A stretch of DNA of 64,000 nt from assembly GCA_963734495.1 (NCBI GenBank), contig CAVTHK010000005.1, forward strand, positions 165,913 through 229,912. The letters run 5' to 3'. Each line of letters opens with the position of its first letter. Position 1 is the first letter of the stretch. Both the position numbers and the translations under genes were made by a program. This document shows positions 11,468-64,000 of the stretch, piece after piece. The DNA comes from an uncultured Spirochaetota bacterium (GTDB lineage Bacteria; Spirochaetota; Spirochaetia; SZUA-6; CAVTHK01). The notes under the pieces were generated by a model. It did no database searches and was not told the DNA's origin. It worked only from the letters and a program-made list of their open reading frames with translations.

Positions 11468-12501
11468 GCTTCCCGCCTATGGTACCAGCGCCGCGAGAGG
11501 ACCAGCACGAAGAACACGGCGCCGAACAGGGAGGTGACGATCCCGAGCGGGATCTCGCCGGGCAGGAGCGTGCGCGCGAAGTCGTCGCAGCCGACCGCGA
11601 AGACGGCGCCGAGGAGCATGGCCGCCGGCAGGCTTCGCCTCGCGTCCGCGCCGTAGAGGCGCCGGCCGATGTGGGGCACGATCAGCCCGATCCAGCCCAC
11701 GGCACCGCTCACCGAGATGACGGCGGCCACCGCGCAGGTCGCCGCCACGAGCAGCGTGAGCCGCTCGCGAGTGACCGCGGCGCCGAGCGAGCGCGCGACG
11801 CGGTCGTCGAGGGCGAGGATGTTGACGCGCCAGCGCATCAGGAGCGTCACGGCGAGCCCGCACGCCACGAGCGGCAGCACGGTGCGCACGTCGGTCCACG
11901 ACGCGCCCGAGAGCCCGCCCATCATCCAGAACGTGATGTCGGGAAGCTGGCTGAGGGGGTCGGCGACGTACTTGAGAATCCCGACGCCGGACGAGAGCAG
12001 CGCGGCGACCGCAATACCGGCGAGCACGAGCCGCAGGACCCAGCCGCCGAAGCGCAGCGCGCGCGCGACGACGAGCGACAGCAGCAGGCCCCCAAGGGCA
12101 AAGGCGGCCGAGAGGACCTGCACCGCCCAGCCGGCGCCGCCCAGCAGGATGATGGCCAGCGCGGCGCCGAACGCGGCGCCCTGCGTGACGCCCATGATCC
12201 CCGGCTCGACCAGCGGGTTCGAGAACAGCAGCTGGAACACCGTCCCCGCCGCGCCGAGCGAAAGCCCGAGGAGGAGCCCCAGGAGGACCCGCGGCAGCCG
12301 CAGCCCGAACACCAGCCGGCGGGCCAGCGGGTCGGCCGCGAGCCTCGCCGGATCGATCAGCCCCGGACTCGGGTACCTGCCCAGAAGCAGCGACACCGCG
12401 AGCAGCAGGAGCAGCGCCGCGCAGAGGACAAAGGCTCTCAGCGCGGGCGGGCGCGGTTGCGCCGCCGGACCGGAGGCCTGTTCGACCTGCATGGCCGTCA
12501 C
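11464..12501 (-). CDS. FecCD/BtuC-type ABC permease
   Basis: LRLPRVLLG, NPLVEPGIMG, GAVGWIGLIVPH, EIPLGIVTSLFG. GTG start after GGGAGGG. Confidence 0.92.
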   Translation of the reverse strand: MTAMQVEQASGPAAQPRPPALRAFVLCAALLLLLAVSLLLGRYPSPGLIDPARLAADPLARRLVFGLRLPRVLLGLLLGLSLGAAGTVFQLLFSNPLVEPGIMGVTQGAAFGAALAIILLGGAGWAVQVLSAAFALGGLLLSLVVARALRFGGWVLRLVLAGIAVAALLSSGVGILKYVADPLSQLPDITFWMMGGLSGASWTDVRTVLPLVACGLAVTLLMRWRVNILALDDRVARSLGAAVTRERLTLLVAATCAVAAVISVSGAVGWIGLIVPHIGRRLYGADARRSLPAAMLLGAVFAVGCDDFARTLLPGEIPLGIVTSLFGAVFFVLVLSRRWYHRREA

Positions 12502-12574
12502 TCGCGCCCTCCCTACAGGTGCGGCCCGGCCGCGGCAGAACGCGCCGGCAGGGCCGCGGGGAACCGCGGGCGGT

Positions 12575-13705
12575 TCAGCGGAGGCCGCCGCGGACGTTGG
12601 CGATGACGGTGGCACGCACGGCCGCTTCGCTCATGCCGTAGAGGAACGAGAACAGGCGCACCGCGTCGCGCTCCACGTCGAGGTCCGCAAAGAGCTCGGG
12701 GTGCAGGCGCGAAGCGAGCCACTCGAGGCCGAGGACCCATCTCACGTCGGGCTGGTCCCAGCTGTAGTAGTCCGCGGGAAAAGCGGCGAGACGGCCGGCC
12801 CGGACCGACGCGAGCGAGCGCCACGCGGGGTCCCCGCCGAGCGCGGTCGCGAGCCGGTCCACGCCTGCCCGGTAGGACGCGACGAAGACCCAGTCCGGGT
12901 TCCAGGCCGCGATCTGCTCGAAGCTCACGCGGTTCCAACCCTGCCCCGTGTTCGCCTTCTTCCAGACCGGCCTTCCCCCCGCCATCTCGACCAGCCCCGT
13001 CTGGATCCAGCCGGCCGGCGGAACGTTCAAGGACTGCTCGCCTCCCCTGACCGCGTCGTAGACGAAGAGCACGCTCGGCCTGCGGTCGTCGCCCAGCGCC
13101 GCGGTGCGCGCAGTCACGCCGCTCATCCGCGCCTCGAGCGCGCGCCAGATCTCGTCCGCCCTGCCCTGATCGCGCAGAAGCTGCCCGAAGACCGCGAGGT
13201 CCCTGCGGTACTGTTCGGGCGTCTCGAAGTCCACGTACAGCACGGGGATGCCGATGGCCTCGAGGGGCCGGCCCAGGGTTTCGGCCATGAAGCTCTTGAG
13301 GATCACGGCGTCGGGCTTGAGCGCGGCGATCTGCTCGGCGCCCGCGGTTCCCGGGAGCGTCGCCTTCTCGCCATAGCGCGGGTCGATCGCCGCCAGAAAG
13401 TTGCCGAGCCCCTGGTCGATCTCGGTCGTGGCGAGGAGCCGTCCCCAGGCGCCCGGGAACGCGTAGAGCGCGTCGGCGACCATGAAGACCGACCGGCCGG
13501 CGAGCACGATCCTCGAGGGAATACTGTTGAAGGTCACCGCGCGGCCGCTCGCGTCGGTCACCGTCCACGGCGCCTGCGCGGGGGGAGGCGGCTCGCGGGC
13601 GGCCTCGGGCGCGGGCGACGCGGCCGCCGCCGGGGCCGACAGGAGCGCCGCGATCGCGGCCGCTGCGAGCGCGCCGCGCGCGGCCCTGGGTCGGCGGAAG
13701 GCCAT
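12575..13705 (-). CDS. Type II ABC periplasmic binding protein (metal chelate/cobalamin-type fold)
   Basis: Signal peptide, TVTDASGRAVTF, EQIAALKPD, VSFEQIAAWNPD, SWDQP. Confidence 0.88.
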   Translation of the reverse strand: MAFRRPRAARGALAAAAIAALLSAPAAAASPAPEAAREPPPPAQAPWTVTDASGRAVTFNSIPSRIVLAGRSVFMVADALYAFPGAWGRLLATTEIDQGLGNFLAAIDPRYGEKATLPGTAGAEQIAALKPDAVILKSFMAETLGRPLEAIGIPVLYVDFETPEQYRRDLAVFGQLLRDQGRADEIWRALEARMSGVTARTAALGDDRRPSVLFVYDAVRGGEQSLNVPPAGWIQTGLVEMAGGRPVWKKANTGQGWNRVSFEQIAAWNPDWVFVASYRAGVDRLATALGGDPAWRSLASVRAGRLAAFPADYYSWDQPDVRWVLGLEWLASRLHPELFADLDVERDAVRLFSFLYGMSEAAVRATVIANVRGGLR

Positions 13706-13736
13706 GCGCCACCTTAGGAGCGCCGGCGGAGCGCTG

Positions 13737-14664: not shown

Positions 14665-16011
14665 ATGACCAATAACCATCAGGGGCGCCGCGGCCGCATC
14701 GCGCGCGCCGCGCGGTCGCTCGCGGCCGCGGCTGTCCTCACGCTCGCGTTCGCCGGCTGCACGTCGATGTCGGACACCGTGTTCCTCGTGCGCAAGGTCG
14801 ACGGCGCGGCCAAGAGCCGGGCCGTGACCGAACAGGGCATCTCGATCTACGAGGTGCGGGTGCTCGGACGCCAGGACTACGCGGCGATCGAGGAGGCGCG
14901 CCGCTACTTCGAGGTCGCGCTGCGCTTCGATCCCGACAATACCCGCGCCCGCCAGTACCTGGAGACCGTGGACAGGTTCCGCGCGTCCGAGCTGCGGGCC
15001 AGGACCGAGCGGGCCGCCGACCTGCTGAAAAGGACCGGCCGCAGCGAGCAGGAGAGCTGGGCGATGCTCCTCCTCGTCCGCCAGGCGGCGGCCCTGTCGC
15101 CCGCCGACGCGCGGGTGGTCTCGCTGATGGCCGATACCGAGCAGGTCAGGGCCGCGATGGTCAAACAGCTCATGGAGCGGGCCCGCGCCGCCCACGAGCA
15201 GATCAGGCAGGACGATCCGCAGCGGGAGCAGAAGCTCCTCGACGTCAAGGACCAGTACGATCGCATCCATGCCATACAGCCCGACTACGTCGATCTGCAG
15301 GTCAGGCGCTCCGCGGTCAGCGGCGAGCTCGACCGCATCTTCAAGGACGGCTCCCTGCGGGCCTCCCGGCGCATCGATGCCGCGCAGTTCGTCGAGGCGC
15401 GCGAAGAGATCGACCGGCTCGACGGGCTGAACCGCAGGCTCGACTACGCTCACGACGAGGAGGTCCGCGGCCTCTCCTACCGGCTGAACTACCACTGGGC
15501 GAAGGATGCCTACGGCCGCAAGCAGCTCGGCCTCGCGGGCGCCAGAGTCGACGCCGCGCTCCGCGCCCGGCGGACCGACGAGGCGGCCGCGCTCAAGGCC
15601 TCCATCGAAGACGACCTGCAGCGCGCAGCCCGCGCTGCCGCGGCCGCCCCCCCGGTGGGCGCGCCCGGCGGGTCGGCGGCGGGCCAGGCGGCGCTGCAGG
15701 AGGTGCAGGACCTCGTCCGAAGGGGAGAGCTCGCGGCCGCCAACCGCAGGATCAACGCCCTGCTCGGGACGACCGGCGACCGCGAGATCGTCGCGGGCCT
15801 CAGGGAGCAGCAGGCCGCCGTCAGGGCGCGCCTCCCCGACCTCTACGCCCGGGGCGTCGAGGCGTACCGGCAGGAGGACTTCAAGCGGGCTGTCGACCTC
15901 CTCTCGGTCGTCGTCGAGATCGACGTCGGCTACGAGCAGGCCGGCGACTACCTCGACAAGGCGCGGGCCAAGCAGAAGCTGCTCGAGAGCCTGCAGGGGA
16001 GCAGAGGGTGA
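14665..16011 (+). CDS. TPR-like helical lipoprotein
   Basis: Lipobox LAFAGC and TPR-like helices (FEVALRFDPDNTRARQYL; YARGVEAYRQEDF...AGDYLDKA). Confidence 0.7.
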   Translation: MTNNHQGRRGRIARAARSLAAAAVLTLAFAGCTSMSDTVFLVRKVDGAAKSRAVTEQGISIYEVRVLGRQDYAAIEEARRYFEVALRFDPDNTRARQYLETVDRFRASELRARTERAADLLKRTGRSEQESWAMLLLVRQAAALSPADARVVSLMADTEQVRAAMVKQLMERARAAHEQIRQDDPQREQKLLDVKDQYDRIHAIQPDYVDLQVRRSAVSGELDRIFKDGSLRASRRIDAAQFVEAREEIDRLDGLNRRLDYAHDEEVRGLSYRLNYHWAKDAYGRKQLGLAGARVDAALRARRTDEAAALKASIEDDLQRAARAAAAAPPVGAPGGSAAGQAALQEVQDLVRRGELAAANRRINALLGTTGDREIVAGLREQQAAVRARLPDLYARGVEAYRQEDFKRAVDLLSVVVEIDVGYEQAGDYLDKARAKQKLLESLQGSRG

Positions 16012-18129
16012 ACGGCGGCGCGACCGGCCTCGCGGCGAGGCCTGCTGCCCCACGCGGCGGAGATGGTCTGGGGCGTGCTCGTTCTCGCGTGGATGGGGGT
16101 GGGGATCCTCACGAGCTCCGGCGTCGACCCCGTCCACATGGCGACGTCGCTCCCGCGTCCGGGGCTGTCTTTCCTGCTGATGACGGCCTGCGTCTGGGCG
16201 CTTGCCGGGGCGTGCGTGTTCAAGATCGCGGCGCCGCTCCTCGGCGGCCCGCTCGCGTGGGCGGCCGCGCCGGACCGCGCGGGCGCCGCGCTGCTGGCCG
16301 CCCTCGCCTCGGCCGCGGCGATGACGCTGATCGCCCTGCACCTGTCCTCCCGCGCCGCGAGCGCCGCGTACTTCATCGGCCTGACGCCCCTCGACTACGC
16401 CGTCGCCGCCGCGTCGCTCGCCCTGAACGCCTGGTCGCTCGCGCGGCTGATCGTCCTGGCCAATCTCCGCGACGCGACCTACCGCGAGTACCTGGAGTTC
16501 CGCAGGGGCAGGCCGACGGGAGCGACGGGGACCTGCTGCGGGCCAGCATCCAGAAGAGGCTGACCCTTTCGTTCGTCGGCTTCATCCTCGTCGTCATCGT
16601 CGTCCTCGCGACGGTGCTGATGACCGGGTTCAGCCGCACGATCCTCAAGGCGGTGATCGACAACGGCAGCTCGCTCGCCGACCGCGCCGCGAGCGTCATC
16701 AAGGCCAACCTCGGCGACGACATCGCCATCGCCGACTACTTCGACATCGAGCAGAAGAAGAACGCGGCCGCGGGGTTCCCGTTTCGCAGCCTCTCCTTCT
16801 ACGGCCGCAGGCCCGGCGGCGACTCGTACTTCGTGAGCCACAGCACGGACGAGACGCTGCGCGGGCAAGGAGCTCCCGCCGGCGTACCGCGGCGCGACGC
16901 AGGCGGGCAACCTCTACAGCGAGGGCGGCAGGACCTTCGAGTTCCTCGCCCCCGTCGTCCTGAGCGACGTGCGGGTCGGCTACGTGCTCGCCGACTACGA
17001 CCGCGACGTGATCTACCAGCCCTATTTCCGGACCCAGGTGCGGGTCGTGCTCGTCGCCGCGCTCTTTGTCTACGTCTCGGTGTTCGGGGTCTACGTCTTC
17101 GGCACCAACATCGTCTTCCCGATCCTGTTCCTGCGCATGAGCGTCAAGCGGATGAGCGGGACGCTGGACGACATGATCCGCGGCCGCGTGCGCGTCTCGG
17201 CCGAGCTGCTGCGCTACGAGGACAGGGTCCCGACCCGCGACGAGATCAAGATGCTGTCGGCCGAGATCGGCAACATGACCACGGTCATCAAGGGAATCAT
17301 CCCCTACATCTCCGCGTCCACGCTCAAGCAGGCCGAGCGGGCGACGCCGACTTCGGAGGCCAGGCACCAGGCCGTTCTCTTTACCGACATCCGCGGATTC
17401 ACCACCATCAGCGAAGGCATGGCGCCGGCCGAGGTGGTCGAGATCCTCAACCACTACCTCGGGCTGCAGCAGAGCATCATCTACCAGCACCACGGCGACG
17501 TCGACAAGTTCATCGGCGACGCGGTGATGGGCGTCTTCGAAGGCCCCACGCGCGAGCTCAACGCGTGCCGGGCGGCCATGGCGATCCGCACGGCGATGGC
17601 GAAGGACAGGGAGCTCAAGCAGAGCGAGAAGCGGAACCTGATCTCCATCGGGATCGGGATCAACACGGGGCCGGTGGTGTTCGGCAGCGTGGGGGCGGGG
17701 GACCGCTTGGCCTACACGAGCATCGGCGACACCGTCAACCTCGCCGCGCGCCTCGAAAGCGCCAACAAGGAGTACGGCACCAAGAGCCTGGTTTCCGAAG
17801 AGGTCTACAAGAAGGTCCGCGACGCGTTCGTCTGCCGGGAGATCGACCTGCTCACCGTCAAGGGCAAGAGCCGGCCGGTGCGCATCTACGAGATCCTGCA
17901 GGAGAGAAGCAAGGCCGCCGTGAAGATCACGGCGCTCGCTCAGAGCTTCGAGAAGGGGCTGGCCCTGTATCGCGCGCGGAGGTGGGACTCCGCGGCGACG
18001 GTCTTCGAGGTCCTGGGCAAGCGGCTCGACGACAAGCCGAGCCGCGTGTTCGTCGAGCGCATCGGGGCCTTCCGCGCGAGCCCCCCGCCGCGGGGCTGGG
18101 ACGGCGTCTACACCCTCTCCTTCAAGTAG
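16008..18129 (+). CDS. Membrane-bound class III adenylate cyclase (at least 3 frameshifts)
   Basis: N-terminal TM helices, periplasmic segment, HAMP-like RDEIKMLS, catalytic LFTDIRGFT, DKFIGDAVM and YTSIGDTVNLAARLE, C-terminal WDGVY. GTG overlaps the upstream stop (GTGA). Confidence 0.85.
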
Positions 18130-18883
18130 CCGCTGGGGCGCCGCGGGGCTCGGCGGCGGCCTCGAAGAAACGCTGCACCGCGGCCGGCGCGCGGGCGCTC
18201 CCCGCCAGCGGGCCGTCGTAGATCACGCGGCCCTCGTCCAGGAAGACGATGCGATCGGCGAGCCTGCGGATGCTCGGGGGCTCGTGGGTCACGATGATCA
18301 GGCTCATGCCGAGCCGCGCCCGCAGGCTCAGGATGAGGCGGTCGAGGCTCGCCGAGGTCACCGGGTCCAGCCCGGCGGACGGCTCGTCGAAGAACAGGAG
18401 CTCGGGGTCCAGCGCCAGGGCGCGGGCCAGGGCCGCCCGCTTGCGCATGCCGCCGGAGAGCTCGGACGGCAGCCGGTCCTCGGAGCCGTCGAGGCCGACG
18501 AGGGCGAGCTTGCTGCGCGCGATCCTGGCGACGAGGCCGGCAGGCAGCGCCGTGTGCTGCTGCAGCGGGATGGACACGTTTTCCAGCACGGTCATCGAGT
18601 TGAGCAGGGCACCGGCCTGGAAGAGCATGCCGGTCCTGCGCCGCACGCGCTGCCAGCCCTCCTCGTCGAGGCGGCCGGTGTCCTCTCCGAGGACGATCAC
18701 CTCGCCCGAGTCGGGCCGCAGCAGTCCCACGATGGCCTTGAGCAGCGTCGTCTTGCCGCACCCGCTGGGGCCGAGGACGACGGTGATCTCGCCGCGCCGC
18801 ATGTCGGTGCTCACGCCCGCGAGCACCGTTCGCTCGCCGTAGCTCACCACGAGGTCGCGCACCGTGACCACGGCTTCGCTCAC
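18122..18883 (-). CDS. mlaF: MlaF/Mkl-family ABC ATPase
   Basis: GPSGCGKTT, ELSGGMRKRAALARAL, DEPSAGLDP. Confidence 0.9.
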   Translation of the reverse strand: MSEAVVTVRDLVVSYGERTVLAGVSTDMRRGEITVVLGPSGCGKTTLLKAIVGLLRPDSGEVIVLGEDTGRLDEEGWQRVRRRTGMLFQAGALLNSMTVLENVSIPLQQHTALPAGLVARIARSKLALVGLDGSEDRLPSELSGGMRKRAALARALALDPELLFFDEPSAGLDPVTSASLDRLILSLRARLGMSLIIVTHEPPSIRRLADRIVFLDEGRVIYDGPLAGSARAPAAVQRFFEAAAEPRGAPAAT

Positions 18884-19965
18884 GGCAGGTACACCAGGCT
18901 GAAGAGGACGTCGGCGACGATCACGGCAAAGATCGAGGCCACCACCGAGCGGGTCGTCTCGCGGCCGACGCCCTCGGCCCCGCCGGTCGCGTGCAGGCCG
19001 CAGTGGCTGGAGATCACGGCGATCAGCCACGCGAACACCACGCTCTTGGCGAGGCCGCTCAGGATGTCCTGGGCTCGCAGCACGCTGATGGACTCGTTCA
19101 CGTAGGCGATCACGGGGATGTGCAGGTAGCTCACCGCCACCAGGAGGCCGCCGAAGATGCCGATCAGGGTGGAGAGCGTCACGAGGAGCGGCGTGCAGAG
19201 CGTGATAGCGAGGAGCTTGGGAACCACCACGTAGCGGACGGGGTCGATCGCCATGGTGCGCAGCGCGTCGATCTCCTCGCTCACCTTCATCGTGGCGATC
19301 TCGGCGGCCATGGCCGACCCGCTGCGGCCGGCGATCAGGATCGCCGTCATCATCGGCCCCATCTCGCGGACCATCGACACCGCGACCAGGTCGGCGACAA
19401 AGATGTTCGCGCCGACGAGACGGAGCTGCGCCGCGGCCTGCAGCGAGAGGATCAGGCCGATGATGAACGACAGCAGCCCCACCACCCCGACCGCGTCGAG
19501 GCCGATCAGCACCGCCTGCTCGACGACGGCCCCGCGCCGGTGGCCGCTGCGGTCGGCGAGGGCGCGGGCCGCGGCGGCGAACACGTCCGCGGCGAGCTGC
19601 GCGACCTCGCGGACCGCGGTCATGCCGCCGTAGAGGCGGCCCCCCAGCCGGGCGAGCGCCGGCTCGCGGCGCGCGGCCTCGAGGGGGCGCAGCTCGGGCG
19701 TGAGCGCGGCCAGCACCGCCGCGACCTCCGTGCCGGCGGACACCAGGGTCAGGCCGGGGAACCGCGCGCGCAGCTCGGCGACAAACGCGGCCCCCGCGCT
19801 GTCGGCGCGCGTCACGCGCGCGAGGTCGAGGACGCGCACGTGCTCCGCAGGCAGCCGGAGCACGCGTGCCCAGAGACCCGGCACCGACTCCGCATCGAGA
19901 GGCCCGATCAGGGCGAGCGTATTCTCCTGCAGAGCGACCGCGGCCGAGTCGCTATCGGACGACAT
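18880..19965 (-). CDS. mlaE: MlaE permease with N-terminal STAS domain
   Basis: STAS-like DLARVTRADSAG, then REMGPMMTAILIAGRSGSAMAAEIATMKVSEEIDAL and GAEGVGRETTRSVV. Confidence 0.92.
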   Translation of the reverse strand: MSSDSDSAAVALQENTLALIGPLDAESVPGLWARVLRLPAEHVRVLDLARVTRADSAGAAFVAELRARFPGLTLVSAGTEVAAVLAALTPELRPLEAARREPALARLGGRLYGGMTAVREVAQLAADVFAAAARALADRSGHRRGAVVEQAVLIGLDAVGVVGLLSFIIGLILSLQAAAQLRLVGANIFVADLVAVSMVREMGPMMTAILIAGRSGSAMAAEIATMKVSEEIDALRTMAIDPVRYVVVPKLLAITLCTPLLVTLSTLIGIFGGLLVAVSYLHIPVIAYVNESISVLRAQDILSGLAKSVVFAWLIAVISSHCGLHATGGAEGVGRETTRSVVASIFAVIVADVLFSLVYLP

Positions 19966-22063
19966 ACGTGAGCCTCAGCACGAGCCGGTGATCGACGACA
20001 AAGTAGTGCCCGGGCACAACGGGGACCCGGTTGTTGAGATTGAGCCGATACTCGAGCAGGAGGTACCTGAAGAGGCTCAGGTCGAAGATGTTCTCCCAGT
20101 CCAGCGAGACCTGGCTGCCTCGCTCGAAGGGGAACAGCACCTCCGAAGACAGCGTGTACGTCAGGCCGAACGGCAGGTTCACCGTGCCCAGCGCGGAAAC
20201 CTCGATCCCGGTCTGGTACTGCGAGGGAACCTCCTCGTACACCTGGAAGACGTCGGGTCCAACCGTTTCCGTGCCCGTAACCGTGTACACGTCACCGTTG
20301 AAGTCCTGGCGGAGGCCCAGGCCCGCGCGCACGCTGAGCTCGGCGCGGGAGAGGTTGATCACACGGAAGTTCAGCCCCGCGCCTTCCTGAAGGATCAGCG
20401 GGAGAAAGCTCGGCTTGACCTGCGTCTGGAGCACGTTCGTTTCGCTCGACAGGAGCGTCCCGTCCGTCGCGCGCTTGTGCACGTTCTGCGCGGTCGCGAA
20501 GTAGACGTATTCCGGGAAGAAATGGGTCGCGACGTCGAAGCGGCTGTAGAGCCCCACGTCCTTGAGAAAGAAATAGATGAGCGTGTTGTTGAGGATGAGG
20601 TCGTCGGAAGAGATGCGGAAGTCGGTGTCCGGCGATTTGGTGACGCCCGTATCGAGGAGCATCCGCATGGTGTACAGCAGCGGCGAAAGGTCGACGACCA
20701 GGCGCGTGTCGACCTCGCCGGTGACCGTCGTCTGCGTCTCGAAGCTCTGGGGATCGATCTCGTTGCTGCTCGAGAAATCCGTCGTGCCGGAAATGGTCGA
20801 GGTCACGCGCACGGGCTGCTTGGCCTGCCCGCCCGGCCCTTCTTCGAGGACGCCGGCGCCCACGAGGTCGGTCGGGTTCCCGGTCTGGTCGACGCCCACC
20901 ACGATCGTGAGGCGTTTCGTGTCGCCCGCGCCGAGGGTGAGGGTGGTAAAGTCTTTGTAGGTGACGAACGGCTGGTTCCTGATCGTGATCTTCCACAAGC
21001 CGGGGTGCAGGATCCAGGCCCGGCTCTGCTCGCCGAGCGTCTCGTTGGCGGAGATATCGGTTCCGTAACTGTCTCCCGTCGCGGCGTCGAAGACCTCGTA
21101 GCCGATCTTCACGAAATCCCGGTCCTCCGTGACGATGGAAACGGTGAGCGCTCCCCAGGTCGGTTCGATGACGCGCTTGTAGCGGGGGACGACCAGCACG
21201 TTGCTGATCTCCTGGAGCTGATTCTCGCGCCCCGAGCCGTACTCGATGCGGTAGCGGCCCTCAGGCAGGACCACCGGCACTCCCATCTTCGCCGAGGCCA
21301 CCTCGGTGCGCGACGGCCCGAACACGTGGTAAAAGGGTTCCTGCTCGGTGCCCGTGAGGGCCGGCATCAGGATCACGCCCGCGTTCGGGCTCTCCCCGGT
21401 GAGCGGCTCCAGCCGCCCCTCGGTAGGCGCGGGGAAAAGCTCGCTCCGCTGCCCCGTCTGCAGATAGAGAACGATCTTCGAGATGAAGCGGTCGGTCTCC
21501 TCGAGCAGCATGTCGTTGGCGGCGATCACGAACGACTCCACGCTGGAGTCCGCAAGCGCCTGCTCGCGCGCGACCCTGTGGTGGACGGGGCTGTCGCCCG
21601 AGGAGCGGGCGGTCAGGACAAAGTCCATCTCCAGGTGCGCCTGCCCCTTCGTGTCGACGCGCACCAGCTCGAAGGCGTCGACGTTCGTCGCGACTTCGAA
21701 GTCCACGCTCTCCGTGGAGTATTCCCGCCTGACCTCTGAGAACACGCGGTAGCGCTGCAGCCTCGTCGCCACGAGGTCGGCGATCTTCGGCGGGAGGCTG
21801 ACTCCCCAGAGATCGGTCGTGGAGTAGGAGAAGCGCGGCCCGATGTCCCGCACCACGATCTGCTTCCGGTCGTAGGTGCGCGAGATGCGGGTGTCGGTCA
21901 CCTGCGCCGTCGAAGGAAACGGCTGCTGGCGGATCATGTCGCTGTTCTCGAGCTGCGGGTAGTACTCGAGCATGTAGTAATTGGTCGAGGGAATCACCTG
22001 ACTGACGCAGCCGGCCAGCGCAAGGAGCCCGGCGGCGACCGCGGCGTATCGAAGGTGGCTCAT
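19952..22063 (-). CDS. PqiC-like ABC auxiliary lipoprotein fused to beta-rich domains / predicted outer-membrane beta-barrel
   Basis: Lipobox LALAGC and PqiC-like N-terminus (TNYYML, YDRKQIVVR, YSTTDLWG). The C-terminal approximately 290 aa show alternating amphipathic strands ending RLVLRLTYVVR. Confidence 0.65.
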   Translation of the reverse strand: MSHLRYAAVAAGLLALAGCVSQVIPSTNYYMLEYYPQLENSDMIRQQPFPSTAQVTDTRISRTYDRKQIVVRDIGPRFSYSTTDLWGVSLPPKIADLVATRLQRYRVFSEVRREYSTESVDFEVATNVDAFELVRVDTKGQAHLEMDFVLTARSSGDSPVHHRVAREQALADSSVESFVIAANDMLLEETDRFISKIVLYLQTGQRSELFPAPTEGRLEPLTGESPNAGVILMPALTGTEQEPFYHVFGPSRTEVASAKMGVPVVLPEGRYRIEYGSGRENQLQEISNVLVVPRYKRVIEPTWGALTVSIVTEDRDFVKIGYEVFDAATGDSYGTDISANETLGEQSRAWILHPGLWKITIRNQPFVTYKDFTTLTLGAGDTKRLTIVVGVDQTGNPTDLVGAGVLEEGPGGQAKQPVRVTSTISGTTDFSSSNEIDPQSFETQTTVTGEVDTRLVVDLSPLLYTMRMLLDTGVTKSPDTDFRISSDDLILNNTLIYFFLKDVGLYSRFDVATHFFPEYVYFATAQNVHKRATDGTLLSSETNVLQTQVKPSFLPLILQEGAGLNFRVINLSRAELSVRAGLGLRQDFNGDVYTVTGTETVGPDVFQVYEEVPSQYQTGIEVSALGTVNLPFGLTYTLSSEVLFPFERGSQVSLDWENIFDLSLFRYLLLEYRLNLNNRVPVVPGHYFVVDHRLVLRLTYVVR

Positions 22064-22944
22064 GGCTGCTCCCGGCCCCTCTGGCGGAGCAGCAGAGACG
22101 GATTCTCGCTGATGAGCAGCGCGAAGTCGCTCAGGGATTGCACCGTCTCGCGCAGCGCCGACACGGTGTCGACCAGGTCCCGGCGCGTGCGCAGCACCGT
22201 CACGTCTATGTTCGCGATCGCGTCGCGCGCCTGCGTGATCGTCCGGTTGAGGTTCGTGCTGACGTCCGCCACGTCGGCATCCGTGACCGTGCGGTCCACG
22301 TGCCCGATCAACTGGTTGAAAGAGCCCATCGCGGCTCTCAAGCTCGTGGTGGTCGCCGCGAGGTCCGCGATGAGACCCGCGAGCGGTTCCCGGCTCTCGG
22401 CGACGAACGAGTCGACGTTGCGGACGATGTTGTTGAAGTGCGCCTGGTTCTCCGCGCTCATCAGCTGGGAGATATTGCCCAGAATCGTGTCGAGCTTGGT
22501 CGCGATCGTCTCCGCCGGGGCCAGGATCCTTTCCAGGACCGACTGGCCGCCCTCGATGGTAAAGCCGGGAGGCGCGGGCGGCGTATCGTTGCTGCCGCCG
22601 CTCAGCTCGATCTGCATGAGCCCCGTGATCCCCACCGGGATGAGCATCGCCTTAACGTCGGTGCGCACGGGCGTCCCTTCGCGCACGCTGATGGAAACCA
22701 GGACGGTCCGGATGTCCGTCGTCGAGAAGCGGATGTCCTCGACGGTCCCCACGTCGACCCCCTGGTAGCGGACCGTCCCCCCGATCTGCAGTCCGCTGAT
22801 CGAGGTGCCCCGATAGGCGACGACGTACGGCGTGCGCCGCTCGAGGAGCCTGCGGCCGCCGACGATGCCGAGAAAGGCCGCAAGGAGGGCCACAATGACG
22901 ATCAGAAAGACCGCAAGCCTGACTCGCTGTCCCCGGGTTATCAT
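22060..22944 (-). CDS. mlaD: MCE/MlaD-family protein with long helical C-terminus
   Basis: N-terminal TM, SISGLQIGGTVRYQGVDVGTV, GITGLMQIELSGG, C-terminal ENPSLLLR. Confidence 0.9.
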   Translation of the reverse strand: MITRGQRVRLAVFLIVIVALLAAFLGIVGGRRLLERRTPYVVAYRGTSISGLQIGGTVRYQGVDVGTVEDIRFSTTDIRTVLVSISVREGTPVRTDVKAMLIPVGITGLMQIELSGGSNDTPPAPPGFTIEGGQSVLERILAPAETIATKLDTILGNISQLMSAENQAHFNNIVRNVDSFVAESREPLAGLIADLAATTTSLRAAMGSFNQLIGHVDRTVTDADVADVSTNLNRTITQARDAIANIDVTVLRTRRDLVDTVSALRETVQSLSDFALLISENPSLLLRQRGREQP

Positions 22945-40461: not shown

Positions 40462-40630
40462 GCGACCTCCGGGCGAGGAGTATACGGGCGCGGCCGGATC
40501 GGTCAACCCGACGGGGTTCCGTCCAGTCGGTTTTCCAGCCGCCGCGACCGAAGTGCGATATCATTGACCCTGCCCCTCTGTGGTTCCTTCGAGCGGCCTG
40601 CAGGGCGGGATGAGCTGAGGAGGACAAGAC

Positions 40631-41047
40631 ATGCGAAAGTCGTGTTCTCTGGGCATTTTGATGCTGGGGCTGGCCTGCCTCTTTCTGTTCGCCTGCAAAT
40701 CGGCGGGCACTCCAAAAGAACCAGACGCCGCCGGAACCGGGCTCCGGGCTGGCGGCGGACCCAAGGCATCACTTCCTGCCGTTGCGGTGAGCCATGTGCG
40801 CACCGCAGGCTACTCAGGCGGCACGCGGTCGGCTGCCGCGGCGCAGCCGAGGGAGCTCGCGGGCAAGACGCCGGTGACTCCGGGAAACCGTGCCGGCGCG
40901 GCTGCGGACCAGGCCATACAACCCATGAGAGCCGTCGTGTTCGGAGGCGTTCCGGTGGTCTTTGTGGCAGCCGTCGGGGCGATCGCGACAGCGTTCGACA
41001 GGAGACGTCGCAGGCTCGCCCCCTCCGCTTCCGCGACAAGCCGATAG
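40631..41047 (+). CDS. Hypothetical lipoprotein with C-terminal TM helix and Arg cluster
   Basis: RBS GAGGAGG, lipobox LFLFAC, low-complexity linker, hydrophobic C-terminus followed by RRRRR. Confidence 0.55.
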   Translation: MRKSCSLGILMLGLACLFLFACKSAGTPKEPDAAGTGLRAGGGPKASLPAVAVSHVRTAGYSGGTRSAAAAQPRELAGKTPVTPGNRAGAAADQAIQPMRAVVFGGVPVVFVAAVGAIATAFDRRRRRLAPSASATSR

Positions 41048-41068
41048 CGGCGGGCGCGAGCGCCAACC

Positions 41069-42247
41069 TCACGTTCGCGCCACGCCCTCCAGCCACTCGC
41101 GCGTGATCTCCAGCCCGAAGCCCGGCGCGTCGCTCGGCACCAGGTACCCGTCGCGGATGACGGGCGTCCCCGGAAGCGCCACCATCTCCTCCAGCGGCAC
41201 CCCGGGAGGCGACACGCCCTCGGAGCGCTCGCCCCATGCGATGGCGGGCATGGCGAACGAGAGGTGCTGGCCGAACGGCGTGTTCATGCCCGCGTGGGCG
41301 ATCACGGACAGCCCGTAGGCATCGGCGATGTGGCAGATCCTCACCGCGTTCGTCACGCCCCCGCACCAGAGGACGTCCGGCTGCAGGATGTCGACGAGCC
41401 CCGAGCTGGATGCGGAGGCGAACGGCGCCGTCGCGTACCAGTGCTCGCCCGATGCGAGGGTGAGCCACGGCACCCGCCGGCGCACGCGCGCGTACCCTTC
41501 CAGGTCGTCGGGCGCGAGGACGTCTTCGAGCCACTTGATCCGGTAGGGCCTGAGCGCCTCGGCGAGCCGGACCGCATACTCCACGTCGAGCGACATCCAG
41601 GCGTCGACCGCGAGCTCCACGTCGTCGCCCACGATCTCCCTCGCGCGCGCCACGCGCTCCTCGTCGCGGCGCAGGCCCTCGAGCCCGTCCTCGGGTCCGT
41701 GCAGGAGAAAGATCTTGACCGCGCGGAACCCCAGCTCCAGGAACCACTCGAGGCTCGCCTCCATTCCGTAGTCGAGGATGGTGTTGCTCGCGTAGCAGAA
41801 GATGCGCTCTTTCTGCGGCCCGCCTAACAGCTCGTACACGGGGCGCCGCAGCAGCTTCGCCTTGAGGTCCCAGAGCGCCACGTCGACGGCGCTGATGGCG
41901 TAGCTCGCGAGCCCTTCCGTGCCGTAGGCCTCGGTCATGCGGCGCATCACGTCCCAGAGCTTCTCGGTCGCCATGCAGGGCTCGCCTCGAAGAGCCGGCG
42001 CGATGTGCTCGTTGATGATGGTCGCCACGGGACTGCCTTGCACGGTGATGCCGAACCCCCACGTGCCGTCGTCCGCGGTGACGACGCAGGCGACGCGCTT
42101 CCAGCCCGGCCCGCCTTTGCGGCGCATCTCGGGGTAACGCGACATGGGGGCGTGGAAGCCTTCGTTGGACACTTTCGGCACCCGGGGCTGAGTCTTCGGG
42201 TGAGGCGTGATGTCCACCAGGGCCGCGCGTACATCCTTGATCCGCAC
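41069..42247 (-). CDS. Mandelate racemase-subgroup sugar-acid dehydratase (L-rhamnonate dehydratase-like)
   Basis: SAVDVALWDL, VDAW, WLED, SGEH, QPDVLWCGG, PGFGLE. Confidence 0.82.
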   Translation of the reverse strand: MRIKDVRAALVDITPHPKTQPRVPKVSNEGFHAPMSRYPEMRRKGGPGWKRVACVVTADDGTWGFGITVQGSPVATIINEHIAPALRGEPCMATEKLWDVMRRMTEAYGTEGLASYAISAVDVALWDLKAKLLRRPVYELLGGPQKERIFCYASNTILDYGMEASLEWFLELGFRAVKIFLLHGPEDGLEGLRRDEERVARAREIVGDDVELAVDAWMSLDVEYAVRLAEALRPYRIKWLEDVLAPDDLEGYARVRRRVPWLTLASGEHWYATAPFASASSSGLVDILQPDVLWCGGVTNAVRICHIADAYGLSVIAHAGMNTPFGQHLSFAMPAIAWGERSEGVSPPGVPLEEMVALPGTPVIRDGYLVPSDAPGFGLEITREWLEGVART

Positions 42248-42434
42248 CGTCTTCCCCCTCCGCGCCAGGCGCGCCGGCCGGCGCCGCACGCGTCAGGAAT
42301 AGCCCGAAACCCCGCCGCGGTTCAACGGTGGGCGGCGCCAGGCGGCGCAGCGCGCCCTTGCCCGCTGCCGCTCCCCGCACTATGCTGGCCCGGCGGTCCG
42401 GCCTGCCGCGGCCGCGTCGCCGGAGGAGGAGCGC

Positions 42435-44594
42435 GTGAAAGTAAACAAGCACAAGCAGGCCTACATCAGGAGGCACGAGACGAACGCGGACAATACGAAG
42501 CCGACTGTGCCTCCCGAGGACCTCACGCCGAAGCTCGGGCTCGAAGAAACCCTTGCCGCGCTCACCCTCGAGGAGAAGATCGGGATGCTCGGCGGCGTGG
42601 ACCACATGGGGATCCGCGGCGTGCCCCGCCTCGGGCTGCCGCGGGTCTGGTGCTCCGACGCCTCGGCCGGAGTGCGCAACTTCGGCCCGGGCACCTGCTT
42701 CCCGGCGCCTGTGGCGCTGGCCGCTTCCTGGAACCGCGGCCTGGCCCGCAGGGTGGCCGAAGCCATCGGCGAGGAGTGCCGCGCCTTGGGCGTCTCGATC
42801 CTGCTCGGTCCCGGAGTCAACATCGCCCGGGTGCCGACCTGCGGCCGCAACTTCGAGTACATGGGCGAAGACCCCTTTCTCGCGGCCGAGATGGCCGTCT
42901 CCTACATTCAGGGCGTCCAGAGCCGCGGCGTGGCCGCGACGGTCAAGCACTTCGCCTGCAACAACTCCGACTACGACCGCCACCGCATGGACGCGATCGT
43001 GGACGCGCGCACGCTCAACGAGATCTACTTTCCCGCCTTCCGCGCCGCCGTGCAGAAAGCGGGCGCCCGCTGCGTGATGTCCTCCTACAACCCCGTGAAC
43101 GGCGCGTACGCGAGCGAGAACAGGCCGCTGCTCCGCGACACGCTCAAGGGCGAATGGGGGTTTGCGGGCTTCGTGATGTCGGACTGGAACTCGGTCTACG
43201 GCACGCGCGGCCCCCTCGAGGCCGGGCTCGACCTGGAGATGCCGCGCGGCGTCTTCTACAGCCCCGAGCAGATCGAGCCGCTGGTGCGCGAGGGCAAGGT
43301 CCCCGTCGAGCTCGTGGACGAGAAGATCCGGCGCATGCTCAAGGTGTTCTTCGAGATGAAGGTCTACGGCCGGCCGACGATCGACGCTTCCGCGACCGCG
43401 CACACCGCGGCTGCCCTCGCCGTTGCCCTCGAGGCGGCCAAGGAGGGCATCGTGCTGCTGAAGAACGAGCGCGGCCTGCTGCCCTTCGACCCGGCGCGCC
43501 TGCGCCGCGTGGCGCTGGTCGGCGCGAACGCAGCCGCCACGCCCACGGGGGGCGGCGGCTCCTCCCGCGTGCGGGCCGCCCGACCCATCAGCATCGAGCA
43601 GGGGCTGCGCGAGGCCCTGCCGCGCGCCGACGTCGCGGTGGTCCCCGACAGGCGCGGCCGCATCGGCGCCCGGGACGCCGCGAGCATCAGGGAGGCCGAC
43701 GCGGTCGTCGTGTGCGTCGGCTTCAACCATCGGCTCGAGAGCGAGAGCTACGACCGCCCGTGGCGGCTCCCCGACGGGCAGGCGCGCCTGGTGCGCCGCC
43801 TGTCGGCGATCAACAAGAACACTGTGGTCGTGCTCACTTCGGGCGGAGACCTGGAGACTGCGTCGTGGATCGGTCATGCGCCGGCAGTCCTTCACACGAT
43901 GTATCTCGGGGAGGTCACGGGCCGCGCCATCGCGGAGACGCTGACCGGCGCCAGCAACCCTTCGGGCAAGCTCCCCTTCACCATGGCGAAGCGTTGGGCG
44001 GATCACCCGGCCACCGCGAGCTACGTGCGCAGGCCCGAGCACACGACCGCGCGCCTCACGCTCGGCCCGCCGACTCGGAGGCGCATCAACGAGCTGCCGG
44101 CGGCCGTGATGGAGCGCTGGCCGCGGGAGCGGCGGCCGGTGCGGTACAGAGAGGGGATCTTTGTCGGCTACCGGCACTTCGACACGCGCGAAGTCGAGCC
44201 GCAGTTCGCCTTTGGCCACGGGCTAGCCTACACGAGCTTCGAGCTGGGCGAGCTGCGCCTCTCCGCGGCCAAAGTCGGCCGCGGCGGCGAAGTCACGGTC
44301 ACTCTGAGCGTACGCAACACGGGGGCGCGAGCGGGCGCCGAGGTCATCCAGCTGTACGTCGAGGACCTCGAGTGCTCGCTCCCGCGGCCGCGCAAGGAGC
44401 TCAAGGCGTTCGCCAAGGTGAGCGTCGAGCCGGGGCAGACGGCAAGCGTCAGCCTGAAGCTCGACGACGAAGCCTGGCGCTTCTACGACCCGGCGCGCCG
44501 CGCGTGGGCCGCGGAGCCGGGCCGCTTCCGGCTGCACGTGGGCACGAGCTCGCGCGCCATAGCGCACACGGCGGAAATCGACTACGCCGGTTGA
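42435..44594 (+). CDS. GH3 beta-glucosidase-like enzyme (cytoplasmic, C-terminal Fn3-like domain)
   Basis: GRNFEYMGEDP, KHF, MSDW nucleophile, ESESYDR, NPSGKLP, ELKAF. Confidence 0.93.
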   Translation: MKVNKHKQAYIRRHETNADNTKPTVPPEDLTPKLGLEETLAALTLEEKIGMLGGVDHMGIRGVPRLGLPRVWCSDASAGVRNFGPGTCFPAPVALAASWNRGLARRVAEAIGEECRALGVSILLGPGVNIARVPTCGRNFEYMGEDPFLAAEMAVSYIQGVQSRGVAATVKHFACNNSDYDRHRMDAIVDARTLNEIYFPAFRAAVQKAGARCVMSSYNPVNGAYASENRPLLRDTLKGEWGFAGFVMSDWNSVYGTRGPLEAGLDLEMPRGVFYSPEQIEPLVREGKVPVELVDEKIRRMLKVFFEMKVYGRPTIDASATAHTAAALAVALEAAKEGIVLLKNERGLLPFDPARLRRVALVGANAAATPTGGGGSSRVRAARPISIEQGLREALPRADVAVVPDRRGRIGARDAASIREADAVVVCVGFNHRLESESYDRPWRLPDGQARLVRRLSAINKNTVVVLTSGGDLETASWIGHAPAVLHTMYLGEVTGRAIAETLTGASNPSGKLPFTMAKRWADHPATASYVRRPEHTTARLTLGPPTRRRINELPAAVMERWPRERRPVRYREGIFVGYRHFDTREVEPQFAFGHGLAYTSFELGELRLSAAKVGRGGEVTVTLSVRNTGARAGAEVIQLYVEDLECSLPRPRKELKAFAKVSVEPGQTASVSLKLDDEAWRFYDPARRAWAAEPGRFRLHVGTSSRAIAHTAEIDYAG

Positions 44595-62085: not shown

Positions 62086-64000
62086 CTGACTTGTCGAGTT
62101 GGAGTTGCGCTCAGGTTAGGTGCCCTTCACTGGGCACAAGTCCTTCTTGGCCAGCAGCTCGAATGCGCGGCGCTGCAGCGGATTGGCCTCGGTGAGACGT
62201 ACGAGGACGGAGCTACTGTCGTCATCGGTGAACGTGCATTTGTTGCGGCACAGTGTGGAGAAGGCTTTCAGCAGGTCGGGGAAGCTATGCAGTGGCAGCC
62301 CATCGACGCTGGTGTGTTCGCGCTTCTTACGCCTGGCCGATGGCGAAGGGACGGCCTTGGCCACGGGGTCGCGACGGCGCCAGGAGCGCTCCAGCTCTTC
62401 GTCCTGGTAGAGCAAGGGAGCCAGGGCGTCGCGCATGTGCCATTCGACGTAGTAGGCCAGCATGCACAGCAGAATGTGAGCACGCACTCGGTCGGGGACT
62501 CGATGGCGGATGGGACGAACCATGATCTGCAGGCCCTTGCAGGTACGGAAGATCCGCTCGACGCGCCGCAGGTTCTTGTACTGCCGCACCGTATCGGCGG
62601 CCGATAGATTCTCTTTCGCCTCGCTGGTGCGCACGATGTAGATGCCGTCCAGTTGCTGCTCGCGCTCGATGCTGCTGTCTCTGCGCCTCCACTGCAGCAC
62701 CTTGTCTTCGATGGTGAGCTGAAAATGCTTGGCCATCTTGTGCCGATTGATGACGCGGCCGACTTTTAGCGCGATCTCTTTCTTGGTCAGCGGGGTCCTG
62801 GTTCGCCGCTGCACCTGGGCCGCAATCCGCTGCAACGCCGCCTCGGTCGCTTGCAGGAGCTCCAGCCGCTTGCGTCTCCTCTCCTCGGCCATCAGCGGGT
62901 TGTAGCAGGCGATCAATCGCTCACCCGCATAATCGTCGCCGCTGATCTCGGCGAGGTTGGTGTCGTCGAAAAGCTCGGGGCCCAGCACCCCCTTGTCGAT
63001 GAGGGCCCGGATCTGCGGGCTCCTCAACGCTGAGATCCACCCCAGCCCCGGATAGGCTTTGAGGCTCTCGATCTGAGTCTGGGTGAGCATGCCGCGATCA
63101 CCTACCAGCACCACACGCTTCAGACGAAAATGCTCGCGCAGCTTGCCCACCTGGTCGCCCACCGTGGCAGGGTCGCCGGTGTTGCCTGCGTACACCTCTA
63201 CTGCCACGGGTCTGCCTTGCTGGTCAGCGAGCACTCCGTAGGCAATCACAGGTCGGCCCGCCTTGCCGTCGCGTCCATAGCCCATGCGGGCCAGCGAGCA
63301 GCAGCGACCCTCGTAGTAGCTGTTGCTCAAGTCGTAGAATGCGTAGCCGCCCTCCGCCAGATGCCGAGCAGCCAGAGCCCGCTCAATCGGCCCTTGCCGC
63401 TGCAGCAGCCAATCCAGAGCCCCGTACAGCTCGTTGGCGTCCGCATCGACGACCCCCAACTCCTGGGCCAACGTCGTGGTGTGCCACAGCCGCGTGTCGG
63501 CAAGCTTGCTTGAACCGTGCAGAAGCTGAGCCACGATCATCGCGACCACCAGGTCGCGTTCGCGCGAGGGCCGCCGGCTCATCATCTTCTCCAGCCCCAG
63601 GGCACGCAGGGTCTGCAGCACTGCCTGCACGTGGCCGTGGGGAAGGGACTCGATGATGCGGAACAGCCCTTCGGCGGGCACCAGGCTCTCGTCGCGTAGT
63701 AGCCGTCGCAGGGCATCGATCTTCTCCTGTGGCCAATCGGAGATGTTGGCGAGGGTCTGCTTGTGCACCTTGCCGCCCTCGCGCCAGCTCTCGCGCAACA
63801 AAACCGCTGGCGGAGAGGAGCGATTGGGGACGATGTCGACGTACATGGCTCATAGTACATCCTCCCAGCATATGTTGTCAACCTCAAATAGCTACTTACA
63901 TGGGTACAATAGGTCGTTTTCGCAACGGGCTTGTCCCTCGTAACTCACCACACAGAAACAACCTACTTCGGTGGGAGTGCTCGACTATTGCTGGAACTTC
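62053..64000 (-). mobile_element. IS1634-family insertion sequence (right end clipped by the window)
   Basis: Terminal inverted repeat GAAGTTCCAGCA (62060-62071) matches TGCTGGAACTTC (63989-64000). Composition is visibly less GC-rich than the flanks. Confidence 0.88.
62116..63846 (-). CDS. IS1634-family DDE transposase
   Basis: MYVDIVPNRSSPPAVLLRESWREGGKV, YDLSNSYYEG, VGDRGML, LDGIYIVRT, VERIFR, RPIRHR. Confidence 0.92.
   Translation of the reverse strand: MYVDIVPNRSSPPAVLLRESWREGGKVHKQTLANISDWPQEKIDALRRLLRDESLVPAEGLFRIIESLPHGHVQAVLQTLRALGLEKMMSRRPSRERDLVVAMIVAQLLHGSSKLADTRLWHTTTLAQELGVVDADANELYGALDWLLQRQGPIERALAARHLAEGGYAFYDLSNSYYEGRCCSLARMGYGRDGKAGRPVIAYGVLADQQGRPVAVEVYAGNTGDPATVGDQVGKLREHFRLKRVVLVGDRGMLTQTQIESLKAYPGLGWISALRSPQIRALIDKGVLGPELFDDTNLAEISGDDYAGERLIACYNPLMAEERRRKRLELLQATEAALQRIAAQVQRRTRTPLTKKEIALKVGRVINRHKMAKHFQLTIEDKVLQWRRRDSSIEREQQLDGIYIVRTSEAKENLSAADTVRQYKNLRRVERIFRTCKGLQIMVRPIRHRVPDRVRAHILLCMLAYYVEWHMRDALAPLLYQDEELERSWRRRDPVAKAVPSPSARRKKREHTSVDGLPLHSFPDLLKAFSTLCRNKCTFTDDDSSSVLVRLTEANPLQRRAFELLAKKDLCPVKGT

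Follow-up and report, generated by a model that had tools for sequence, protein, structure and literature searches.

What stands at the outer-membrane end of an MCE transporter, and can it be encoded in one gene with the lipoprotein that is found there? This question is raised by an operon in a 64,000-nucleotide stretch of DNA from an uncultured Spirochaetota bacterium (contig CAVTHK010000005.1, positions 165,913 to 229,912 of the forward strand), the whole of which is termed the window here. On the minus strand of the window, between positions 18122 and 22944, four overlapping genes follow one another in the order mlaD, a gene for a lipoprotein of 703 amino acids (aa), STAS-mlaE, and mlaF. 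Coordinates and curated domain models agree with this arrangement, which had been described in an earlier note made from the sequence alone. The lipoprotein joins a PqiC-like domain, by way of two β-sandwiches, to a predicted outer-membrane β-barrel. On balance, we favour reading the operon as that of a complete Mla-Pqi chimeric MCE transporter, with a dedicated β-barrel at its outer-membrane end.

The published studies with which the operon is compared are cited here for what is stated in their accessible text. In one of these, a 2026 structural paper on PA3214 and PqiC (PMC13631591), the translocation step at the outer membrane (OM) is described as unclear, and ‘unknown OM binding partners’ are put forward as one possibility.

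Occurrence of the fused gene

Full-length forms of the fused protein are encoded in many genomes. A word-indexed search returned 13 full-length homologues of 660-710 aa with 40-64% identity, all of them with the PF03886 domain, and an exhaustive search of representatives returned 526 proteins at E ≤1e-3. Family members are annotated as ‘hypothetical protein’, ‘PqiC’, or ‘YmbA’. When species genomes were scanned with a 14-row alignment as query, 40 genome loci were found to encode the fusion full-length or up to the end of the contig. Most of these loci are labelled as Cloacimonadota metagenome-assembled genomes (MAGs), and the others as Spirochaetales, Spirochaetota, Sediminispirochaeta, Marinimicrobia, and ‘Armatimonadota’. 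Searches by tblastn with the four proteins of the window demonstrated the order mlaD, fusion, STAS-mlaE, mlaF in 30 of the 40 loci, and the other 10 end at a contig edge. The fusion gene lies beside an MCE gene in 39 of the loci; the fortieth begins just before the fusion gene. Within the order to which the window belongs, the gene was found in one of 30 relatives, the genome of the same genus, where the homologue is fused over its full length and has 57% identity. Full-length homologues in mlaD/E/F contexts, which the earlier note had proposed to look for, are therefore at hand.

These loci bear on an artefactual origin of the gene, in which two separate genes would have been joined by a frameshift, by chimeric assembly, or through a frame that is open by chance. 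The source genome is a MAG with a completeness of 83%, and no public contig bridges the junction between the domains (~21382-21451); the contigs that match the stretch are short and 90-99% alike, with best runs of ≤0.25 of sampled words, and are uninformative on the continuity of the open reading frame (ORF). Continuity is accepted because full-length homologues occur in independent assemblies, such as that of the same-genus genome and a single-contig genome of 3.3 Mb (G240) in which a fused ORF of 678 aa lies between mlaD and STAS-mlaE. Furthermore, 58 of 134 family members are fused, and the linker region can be aligned among homologues. A frame of 703 codons with a curated Pfam match, a model with a predicted local distance difference test score (pLDDT) of 88.9, and full-length homologues by the dozen is not credible as a product of chance. 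The fusion is real, not a polishing artefact, and a false join is extremely improbable.

Domain architecture of the lipoprotein

The N-terminus of the 703-aa protein carries the lipobox LALAGC, whose Cys19 is at least 90% conserved in an alignment of 14 homologues, and an N-terminal lipid anchor is predicted from it. Pfam family PF03886 (ABC_trans_aux) matches residues 54-188 with 41.5 bits against a cut-off of 26 (E 1.3e-10). An AlphaFold2 model of the whole protein, built on 59 relatives, has a mean pLDDT of 88.9 and was divided by DSSP into an alpha/beta part (residues 28-203), a linker (~206-227) whose length varies in the 14-homologue alignment, two all-beta parts (~228-298 and ~304-405), a weak linker (407-414), and 16 strands (418-702). 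Fold searches with VIA-align against 48,161 chains placed the alpha/beta part closest to Escherichia coli PqiC (8q2c_B; Z 19.5, root-mean-square deviation 2.7 over 161 residues) and Xanthomonas XCC0632 (2iqi_A; Z 19.4), and Foldseek matches to the same domain reach E 5e-9 with a TM score of 0.82 (range 0.79-0.83). More distant matches are to PelC (Z 11.5) and the CsgG complex 6lqh (Z 11.3). In size, the protein departs from stand-alone PqiC-like lipoproteins, which have ~190-220 aa, and NCBIfam holds no model for the whole of it.

The two units between the PqiC-like domain and the barrel consist only of strands. The model range 237-407 matches the transthyretin-like protein YedX (2igl_A; Z 9.1, root-mean-square deviation 2.4 over 85 residues). 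The units are weakly alike (hhalign probability 61%, E 8e-5), and the motif that they have in common is the one quoted in the earlier note. Residues G402-L406 at the end of the second unit are invariant across the 14-homologue alignment. When only the sandwiches were searched against Pfam, no family appeared at thresholds up to E 10; neighbours of the PEGA and CarboxypepD_reg types in the ESM Atlas, with scores of only 0.82-0.84, serve as leads only.

Within the C-terminal module, pLDDT is mostly 85-96 across the 16 strands, and the last 290 residues match only outer-membrane barrels in the VIA-align search. The matches are to Tsx (Z 14.3), NanC (13.3), KdgM (12.8), OmpG (12.2), autotransporters (11-12), PelB (11.2), and OMPLA (11.1). 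Foldseek points to the same class of structures, with EstA, FapF, NalP, and OmpG at E 1e-7 to 1e-5. Every predicted strand has one hydrophobic and one polar face, and the loops between strands are 2-11 residues long; this pattern is that of a modelled membrane barrel with a polar interior. Ten polar residues of the barrel are invariant in 14 sequences: D458, K476, R508, D510, H514, R567, R579, Q586, E621, and E657.

Much of what the earlier note had read from the letters is borne out by these results, namely a lipobox followed by a PqiC-like domain of ~200 aa, two similar sandwich-like units, and ~290 aa of amphipathic strands forming a predicted barrel. The soluble C-terminal domain that it had considered as a contrary outcome did not appear in the AlphaFold2, Foldseek, or VIA-align results, which gave barrel folds for this part. 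Its proposal of a C-terminus like a β-signal (RLVLRLTYVVR) survives in part: the Tyr at position -4 is kept, and the last residue is Arg instead of an aromatic residue. Among 134 relatives, the last residue is F, Y, or W in 69 and R or K in 34. As an observation on this C-terminus (window 19955-19972), the fused clade nearest to the window ends in R or K (TYVVR, TYILR) and most split forms end in F or Y; R or K is an unusual last residue for a barrel-assembly signal.

The barrel module also resembles two uncharacterised families of outer-membrane barrels, DUF3078 and DUF481, which members of the family match in part. For DUF3078 (PF11276), a Pfam model that spans only 92 positions, the window protein scores 15.3, 17.2, and 19.2 bits against a cut-off of 25, and the cut-off is passed by some relatives (P0084, 36.6; P0065, 29.7; L120, 27.7 bits). 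Precomputed matches to DUF481 (PF04338) are listed for a few family members. On these profile scores, the module is distantly related to DUF3078 and not a member of it. Six of the eight papers that name DUF3078 are, by their titles and abstract openings, mere listings in proteomes or genomes.

Fused and split forms

Many homologues are proteins of 500-600 aa that match only residues 225-700 of the 703-aa query. These split forms of the sandwich-barrel module bear their own signal peptide. For example, one genome (G047) has the order mlaD, pqiC (214 aa, lipobox LIGLAGC), barrel protein (523 aa), STAS-mlaE, mlaF, and the barrel protein there has its own signal peptide and ends in ...SYIFY. A metagenome scan with a single split-form protein as query returned no loci; with an alignment of 13 stand-alone sandwich-barrel proteins as query it returned 80, in which ORFs were called and searched by phmmer with MlaD, PqiC, MlaE, MlaF, and barrel queries. 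Of these 80 loci, 66 carry pqiC as a gene of its own within the mlaDEF cluster, and three more are fused. In five loci mlaE and mlaF are present and pqiC was not seen; four of them end at the start of the barrel gene, and the fifth (L062) has a glucanotransferase gene upstream of the barrel gene and a contig that ends after mlaF. The remaining six have no such neighbour in view, with three being short, two (L114 and L123) cut on one side, and one (L120) a true exception. In this last locus (L120:4743-6407), a sandwich-barrel homologue of 554 aa has no MCE cluster around it; its neighbours are a kinase-like gene on one side and a methyltransferase gene on the other, with a gene for a PKD-repeat protein nearby.

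Three gene orders are found, which can be written D-C-barrel-E-F, barrel-E-F-D-C, and E-F-D-C-barrel. The pqiC gene is directly upstream of the barrel gene in two of them, and the order barrel-E-F-D-C (four loci) puts the two genes at opposite ends of the cluster. Among the ESM Atlas clusters of the split form, Myxococcota and Latescibacterota are the commonest known phyla.

The 134 proteins with a complete module comprise 58 fused and 76 split forms, so that both states exist; the alternative raised in the earlier note, that homologues are always two separate genes, fails. A strict lipobox is present in 42 of the fused proteins, and 12 more have, by eye, a hydrophobic leader ending in Cys, with the other four appearing truncated; only four of the 76 split barrel proteins have one. 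In a FastTree phylogeny restricted to the module, the state changes at least nine times, with seven changes forced by well-supported branches; the tree is unrooted, and some ‘split’ rows within fused clades may be truncated gene calls. Fused forms occupy a clade of 47 rows that includes the window protein; 15 further fused rows stand far from it on the tree. From the tree, fusion or fission has occurred more than once.

The fusion thus belongs, as one of its states, to a wider system of five parts, and in this system pqiC and the barrel gene are more often separate neighbours. The earlier suggestion of an MCE operon with its own covalently attached barrel therefore applies to the fused architecture in the window, and the covalent link is not general. 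As the split state is more common, the novelty lies in the dedicated barrel and not in the link.

The MCE protein and its C-terminal peptide

The MCE protein encoded upstream of the fusion is matched over residues 10-273 by TIGR00996 (Mtu_fam_mce), a model of the mycobacterial type of MCE protein with an extension. Its transmembrane helix (residues 4-34) is confident in the AlphaFold2 model, as is the MCE domain. The end of the protein is kept in 23 homologues, with the consensus ...SEDPSLLLR or E-[DN]-P-S-L-L-L-R, in which P282 and L285 are invariant. For PA3213-PA3214 and PqiB-PqiC, the final residues of the MCE protein are described as docked in a groove that two protomers of the octameric lipoprotein ring form on the side facing the membrane, and their deletion breaks the complex (PMC13631591). 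By analogy, the conserved peptide of MlaD is probably held by the PqiC-like domain here too. A co-fold of two PqiC domains with the last 45 residues of MlaD scored 0.00, which counts neither for nor against binding. As a separate observation, the mlaD homologue at one locus (L026:5039-5974) has an in-frame stop inside its tblastn match, where a broken gene or a sequencing error is possible.

Comparison with known systems

Several characterized systems provide parts of this design. Among the operons closest in composition are those of Pseudomonas aeruginosa PA3211-PA3214 and of XCC0632, in which MlaE and MlaF occur with a single-MCE protein that has a helical needle and with a lipoprotein of the PqiC fold, as here; the Xanthomonas XCC0632 operon is described as an MlaFE-type ABC system with an MCE needle and a PqiC-like lipoprotein (PMC10897342). 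PA3213 also has a conserved C-terminal peptide, like the MlaD protein in the window (PMC13631591). The differences are that STAS is fused to MlaE here and that two sandwiches and a 16-strand barrel are either part of the lipoprotein or encoded by a gene that comes after it. The Mpc system of Brucella abortus (MpcEFDA) combines MlaEF, an MCE needle, and a PqiC-like lipoprotein, with no MlaA or MlaC (PMC12436622), and has these same three parts in common with the window operon. In contrast, MpcA is a plain PqiC-like lipoprotein, and a barrel component is not described in the accessible text of that paper (PMC12436622). In the source genome, no match to MlaA (PF04333) or MlaC (PF05494) was found, with absence not proven as the genome is 83% complete; the pair that marks the canonical Mla pathway was thus not seen in the genome as searched.

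E. coli PqiABC has a lipoprotein of the same fold at the tip of its MCE needle. It differs in having PqiA in place of an ABC motor, a PqiB protein with three MCE domains, and no barrel. An MCE system of Veillonella parvula likewise has an outer-membrane barrel attached by a covalent link, which would allow it to span the envelope (Grasekamp et al. 2023, PMC10665443); there, the barrel is on MlaD itself without PqiC, whereas MlaD in the window (294 aa) ends in helices. The term ‘PqiC’ is absent from the main text of that paper as accessible. PelBC and LptDE each pair a lipoprotein of the same core fold with a barrel, as here. Their barrels are unrelated in sequence to the present one, their stoichiometries are 12:1 and, with a plug, 1:1, and they work with other inner-membrane machines and without MCE proteins. 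Taken together, the window operon has every testable defining feature of the Mla-Pqi chimeric group and adds a sandwich-barrel module to it.

Proposed mechanism and alternatives

In the mechanism that we propose, MlaF2-(STAS-MlaE)2 would form an inner-membrane ABC motor, by analogy with PqiABC, PA3211-3214, and Brucella Mpc. By the same analogy, six copies of MlaD would form the MCE ring and their helical tails, of ~145 residues each, would build a hollow needle across the periplasm, with the PqiC-like domain of the 703-aa lipoprotein forming a ring about its tip on the inner side of the outer membrane. Each PqiC domain would be tied to a 16-strand barrel through the 22-residue linker and the two transthyretin-like sandwiches. 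The barrel would fix the needle tip in the outer membrane and may supply an entry or exit site for hydrophobic or amphipathic cargo, probably at its wall or a lateral seam instead of a greasy lumen. A role of the barrel in moving cargo is favoured because the module is conserved and contains invariant polar residues. The source genome has four matches over cut-off to the Omp85 family (PF01103), which implies the presence of an outer membrane with a barrel-assembly machine; together with the failure to find MlaA and MlaC in the 83%-complete genome, this fits a bridge-type, Mpc-like system.

A number of points weigh against this proposal. On the strand faces predicted to point into the lumen, R, D, E, N, S, and T are abundant, and a hydrophobic pipe through the barrel is therefore unlikely; the self-contained conduit suggested in the earlier note is a putative role, and the barrel may instead act as an anchor or as a lateral gate. 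Closure of the barrel, its exact number of strands, and any plug are predictions from DSSP strings and fold matches, and the protein ends in Arg without the classical aromatic residue of a β-signal. The predicted template modelling score (pTM) of 0.48 leaves the mutual placement of domains in the 703-aa model undefined. The tail of MlaD is modelled as helical with low confidence in the monomer (pLDDT mostly <55), as would be expected for a single chain of an obligate coiled coil. If the fusion keeps a ratio of 1:1, eight barrels would stand round an octameric PqiC ring, an arrangement that has no precedent; the stoichiometry of PelC to PelB is 12:1. The system is also rare in its own phylum, with three occurrences in 301 sampled genomes, the window's own and G240 included, and the L120 locus is one clear exception to the coupling with pqiC.

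Some of these properties could be accounted for if the barrel served purely as an anchor. The barrel and sandwiches would then rivet the PqiC ring and needle tip to the outer membrane, and cargo would pass through the pore of the ring to or from the inner leaflet, bypassing the barrel. OmpC/F scaffolds MlaA, which offers a parallel. The polar lumen and short loops are consistent with such a role, as are the absence of a hydrophobic channel signature from the barrel model and the nature of the nearest folds, which are small generic barrels. In Proteobacteria, moreover, PqiC and PA3214 function with no known barrel, and no binding of porins by either is known according to the accessible text of the structural study (PMC13631591). 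However, PqiC-like proteins are already tethered by a lipid anchor, and a 480-residue module that stays near pqiC throughout many lineages, and in several arrangements of the genes, points to a role beyond tethering. The conserved polar residues inside the barrel likewise suggest a specific function, and we judge a pure anchor to be unlikely, if still a serious alternative. Another possibility is a machine for export to the cell surface, in which an amphipathic glycolipid or a similar molecule would reach the outer leaflet with its head moving through the polar lumen and its acyl chains through the lateral seam. LptDE and PelBC, with its ring under a barrel, are parallels for such a machine. 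The polar lumen and the barrel match to PelB (Z 11.2) agree with it, and the core fold of PqiC is common to LptE, PelC, and CsgG (PMC13631591), as also seen in the PelC and 6lqh matches. Nevertheless, the cargo of the MlaFE-type ABC systems studied so far is phospholipid or sterol, and it is moved mostly inward. The conserved genes that flank the operon in related loci give no hint of a cargo and include no conserved genes for glycolipid synthesis. A barrel of 16 strands is too small for a PqiC-like plug in the manner of LptDE, and a plug-in-barrel arrangement was dropped for a domain of 180 residues. Surface export is thus an improbable function, and we return to a complete Mla-Pqi chimeric transporter with a barrel at its outer end as the reading that we favour.

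Operon layout and genomic setting

The coordinates of the genes and their parts are collected in Table 1. The STAS-mlaE product is matched by PF02405 (E 4e-74), PF13466 (STAS_2, E 5e-8), TIGR00056 (E 5e-66), and NF033618 (mlaB_1, E 1e-6); in all related loci, the MlaB-like STAS domain is the N-terminal part of MlaE rather than the product of its own mlaB gene. The longest ORF for mlaF begins at 19030, and the conserved part begins near GTG 18883 or 18895. The start is likely to be GTG 18883, with a GTGA overlap with the mlaE stop, or 18895, rather than 19030.

Table 1. Positions of the operon genes and of the parts of their products in the window.
Feature	Position	Strand	Basis or remark
mlaD-type MCE gene, 294 aa	22060..22944	-	PF02470 E 6e-12; TIGR00996 E 1e-20
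MlaD MCE domain, residues 37-132	22549-22836	-	AlphaFold2 secondary structure, confident
MlaD helical tail (residues 136-280) and C-terminal peptide ...ENPSLLLR	22063-22539	-	AlphaFold2 model; homologue alignment
703-aa lipoprotein ORF	19952..22063	-	ATG overlaps mlaD stop by 4 bases
Signal peptide and lipobox LALAGC, Cys19	22007..22063	-	Translation; homologue conservation
PqiC-like alpha/beta domain, residues 27-205	21449..21985	-	PF03886; fold matches
Low-confidence linker, residues 206-227	21383..21448	-	pLDDT 60-74; residues 211-214 <50
β-sandwich unit 1, residues 228-300, PFYHVF...LPEGRYRIEYGSG	21164..21382	-	Strand-only DSSP, pLDDT ~90
β-sandwich unit 2, residues 301-406, IGYEVF...LHPGLWKITI, ends GAGVLEE	20846..21163	-	DSSP; fold match
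Predicted 16-strand outer-membrane β-barrel, residues 418-703	19955..20812	-	DSSP; fold matches (stop 19952-19954)
STAS-MlaE fusion, 361 aa	18880..19965	-	Overlaps 703-aa ORF by 14 bases
STAS (MlaB-like) domain of STAS-MlaE, residues 17-87	19705-19917	-	PF13466
MlaE permease domain of STAS-MlaE, residues 148-357	18895-19524	-	PF02405
mlaF ABC ATPase, 253-257 aa	18122..18895	-	PRK11831 MlaF E 3e-62; PF00005 E 4e-32

The operon is flanked by a convergent gene for an adenylate/guanylate cyclase and, on the other side, by a divergent gene for RNase Y followed by that for Ddl. These flanks limit the operon to exactly four genes in a housekeeping neighbourhood, and with such neighbours a mobile or defence island was dropped as an explanation. 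An Rfam scan of the window matched no family, and a scan for promoters and terminators gave no signal above that of shuffled sequence. The match of the lipoprotein to PF03886 is the only one in the source genome. This genome has a second gene with an MCE domain (G000:C10:125171-125311, locus L130), with an open frame of 247 aa and a score of 37.8 bits.

Upstream of mlaD in other loci, a giant gene (median 1643 aa) was observed with a match at E 1e-20 to SprA_N, a family of the type IX secretion translocon. It is directly upstream in one locus (L011:3-4982) and 25 others, mostly from Cloacimonadota; its place beside the operon in these 26 loci may reflect lineage synteny only. Elsewhere in the window, where the G + C content is ~63-73%, an ORF of 448 aa at 14665-16011 on the plus strand, upstream of the cyclase gene, has a lipoprotein-like leader (LAFAGC) and no Pfam match at E 1e-4. 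Long ORFs also with no match at this threshold are found at 40503-44219 on the minus strand (1238 aa), 11669-13717 on the plus strand (682 aa), and 62116-63846 on the minus strand (576 aa). Some of these three may be spurious frames, given DNA of ~70% G + C.

Implications for MCE transport

Full-text literature searches found neither a fusion of PqiC with a barrel nor a barrel gene coupled to pqiC, with supplements (e.g. the 1119 MCE sequences in Supplementary Dataset 1 of PMC10665443) and most subscription journals lying outside their scope. This accords with the earlier note, whose author knew of no description of such an architecture. The machine itself is of a known type, and its dedicated barrel component appears to be undescribed.

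How MCE tunnels exchange lipids with the outer membrane is an open question, and this family bears on it. A wider claim, tentative and in our judgement somewhat doubtful, is that the sandwich-barrel module represents the partner at the outer membrane that has long been sought for PqiC-type MCE transporters. The fusions would then be a Rosetta stone that presents ring and barrel as one unit, the barrel would be a lateral gate for lipid, and the PqiC-type systems of Proteobacteria would use an analogous barrel that has gone unrecognised. The barrel family, genetically locked to pqiC by fusion or by a place in the same cluster, is a concrete candidate, and a widespread one, for the missing partner of PqiC-type MCE systems at the outer membrane.

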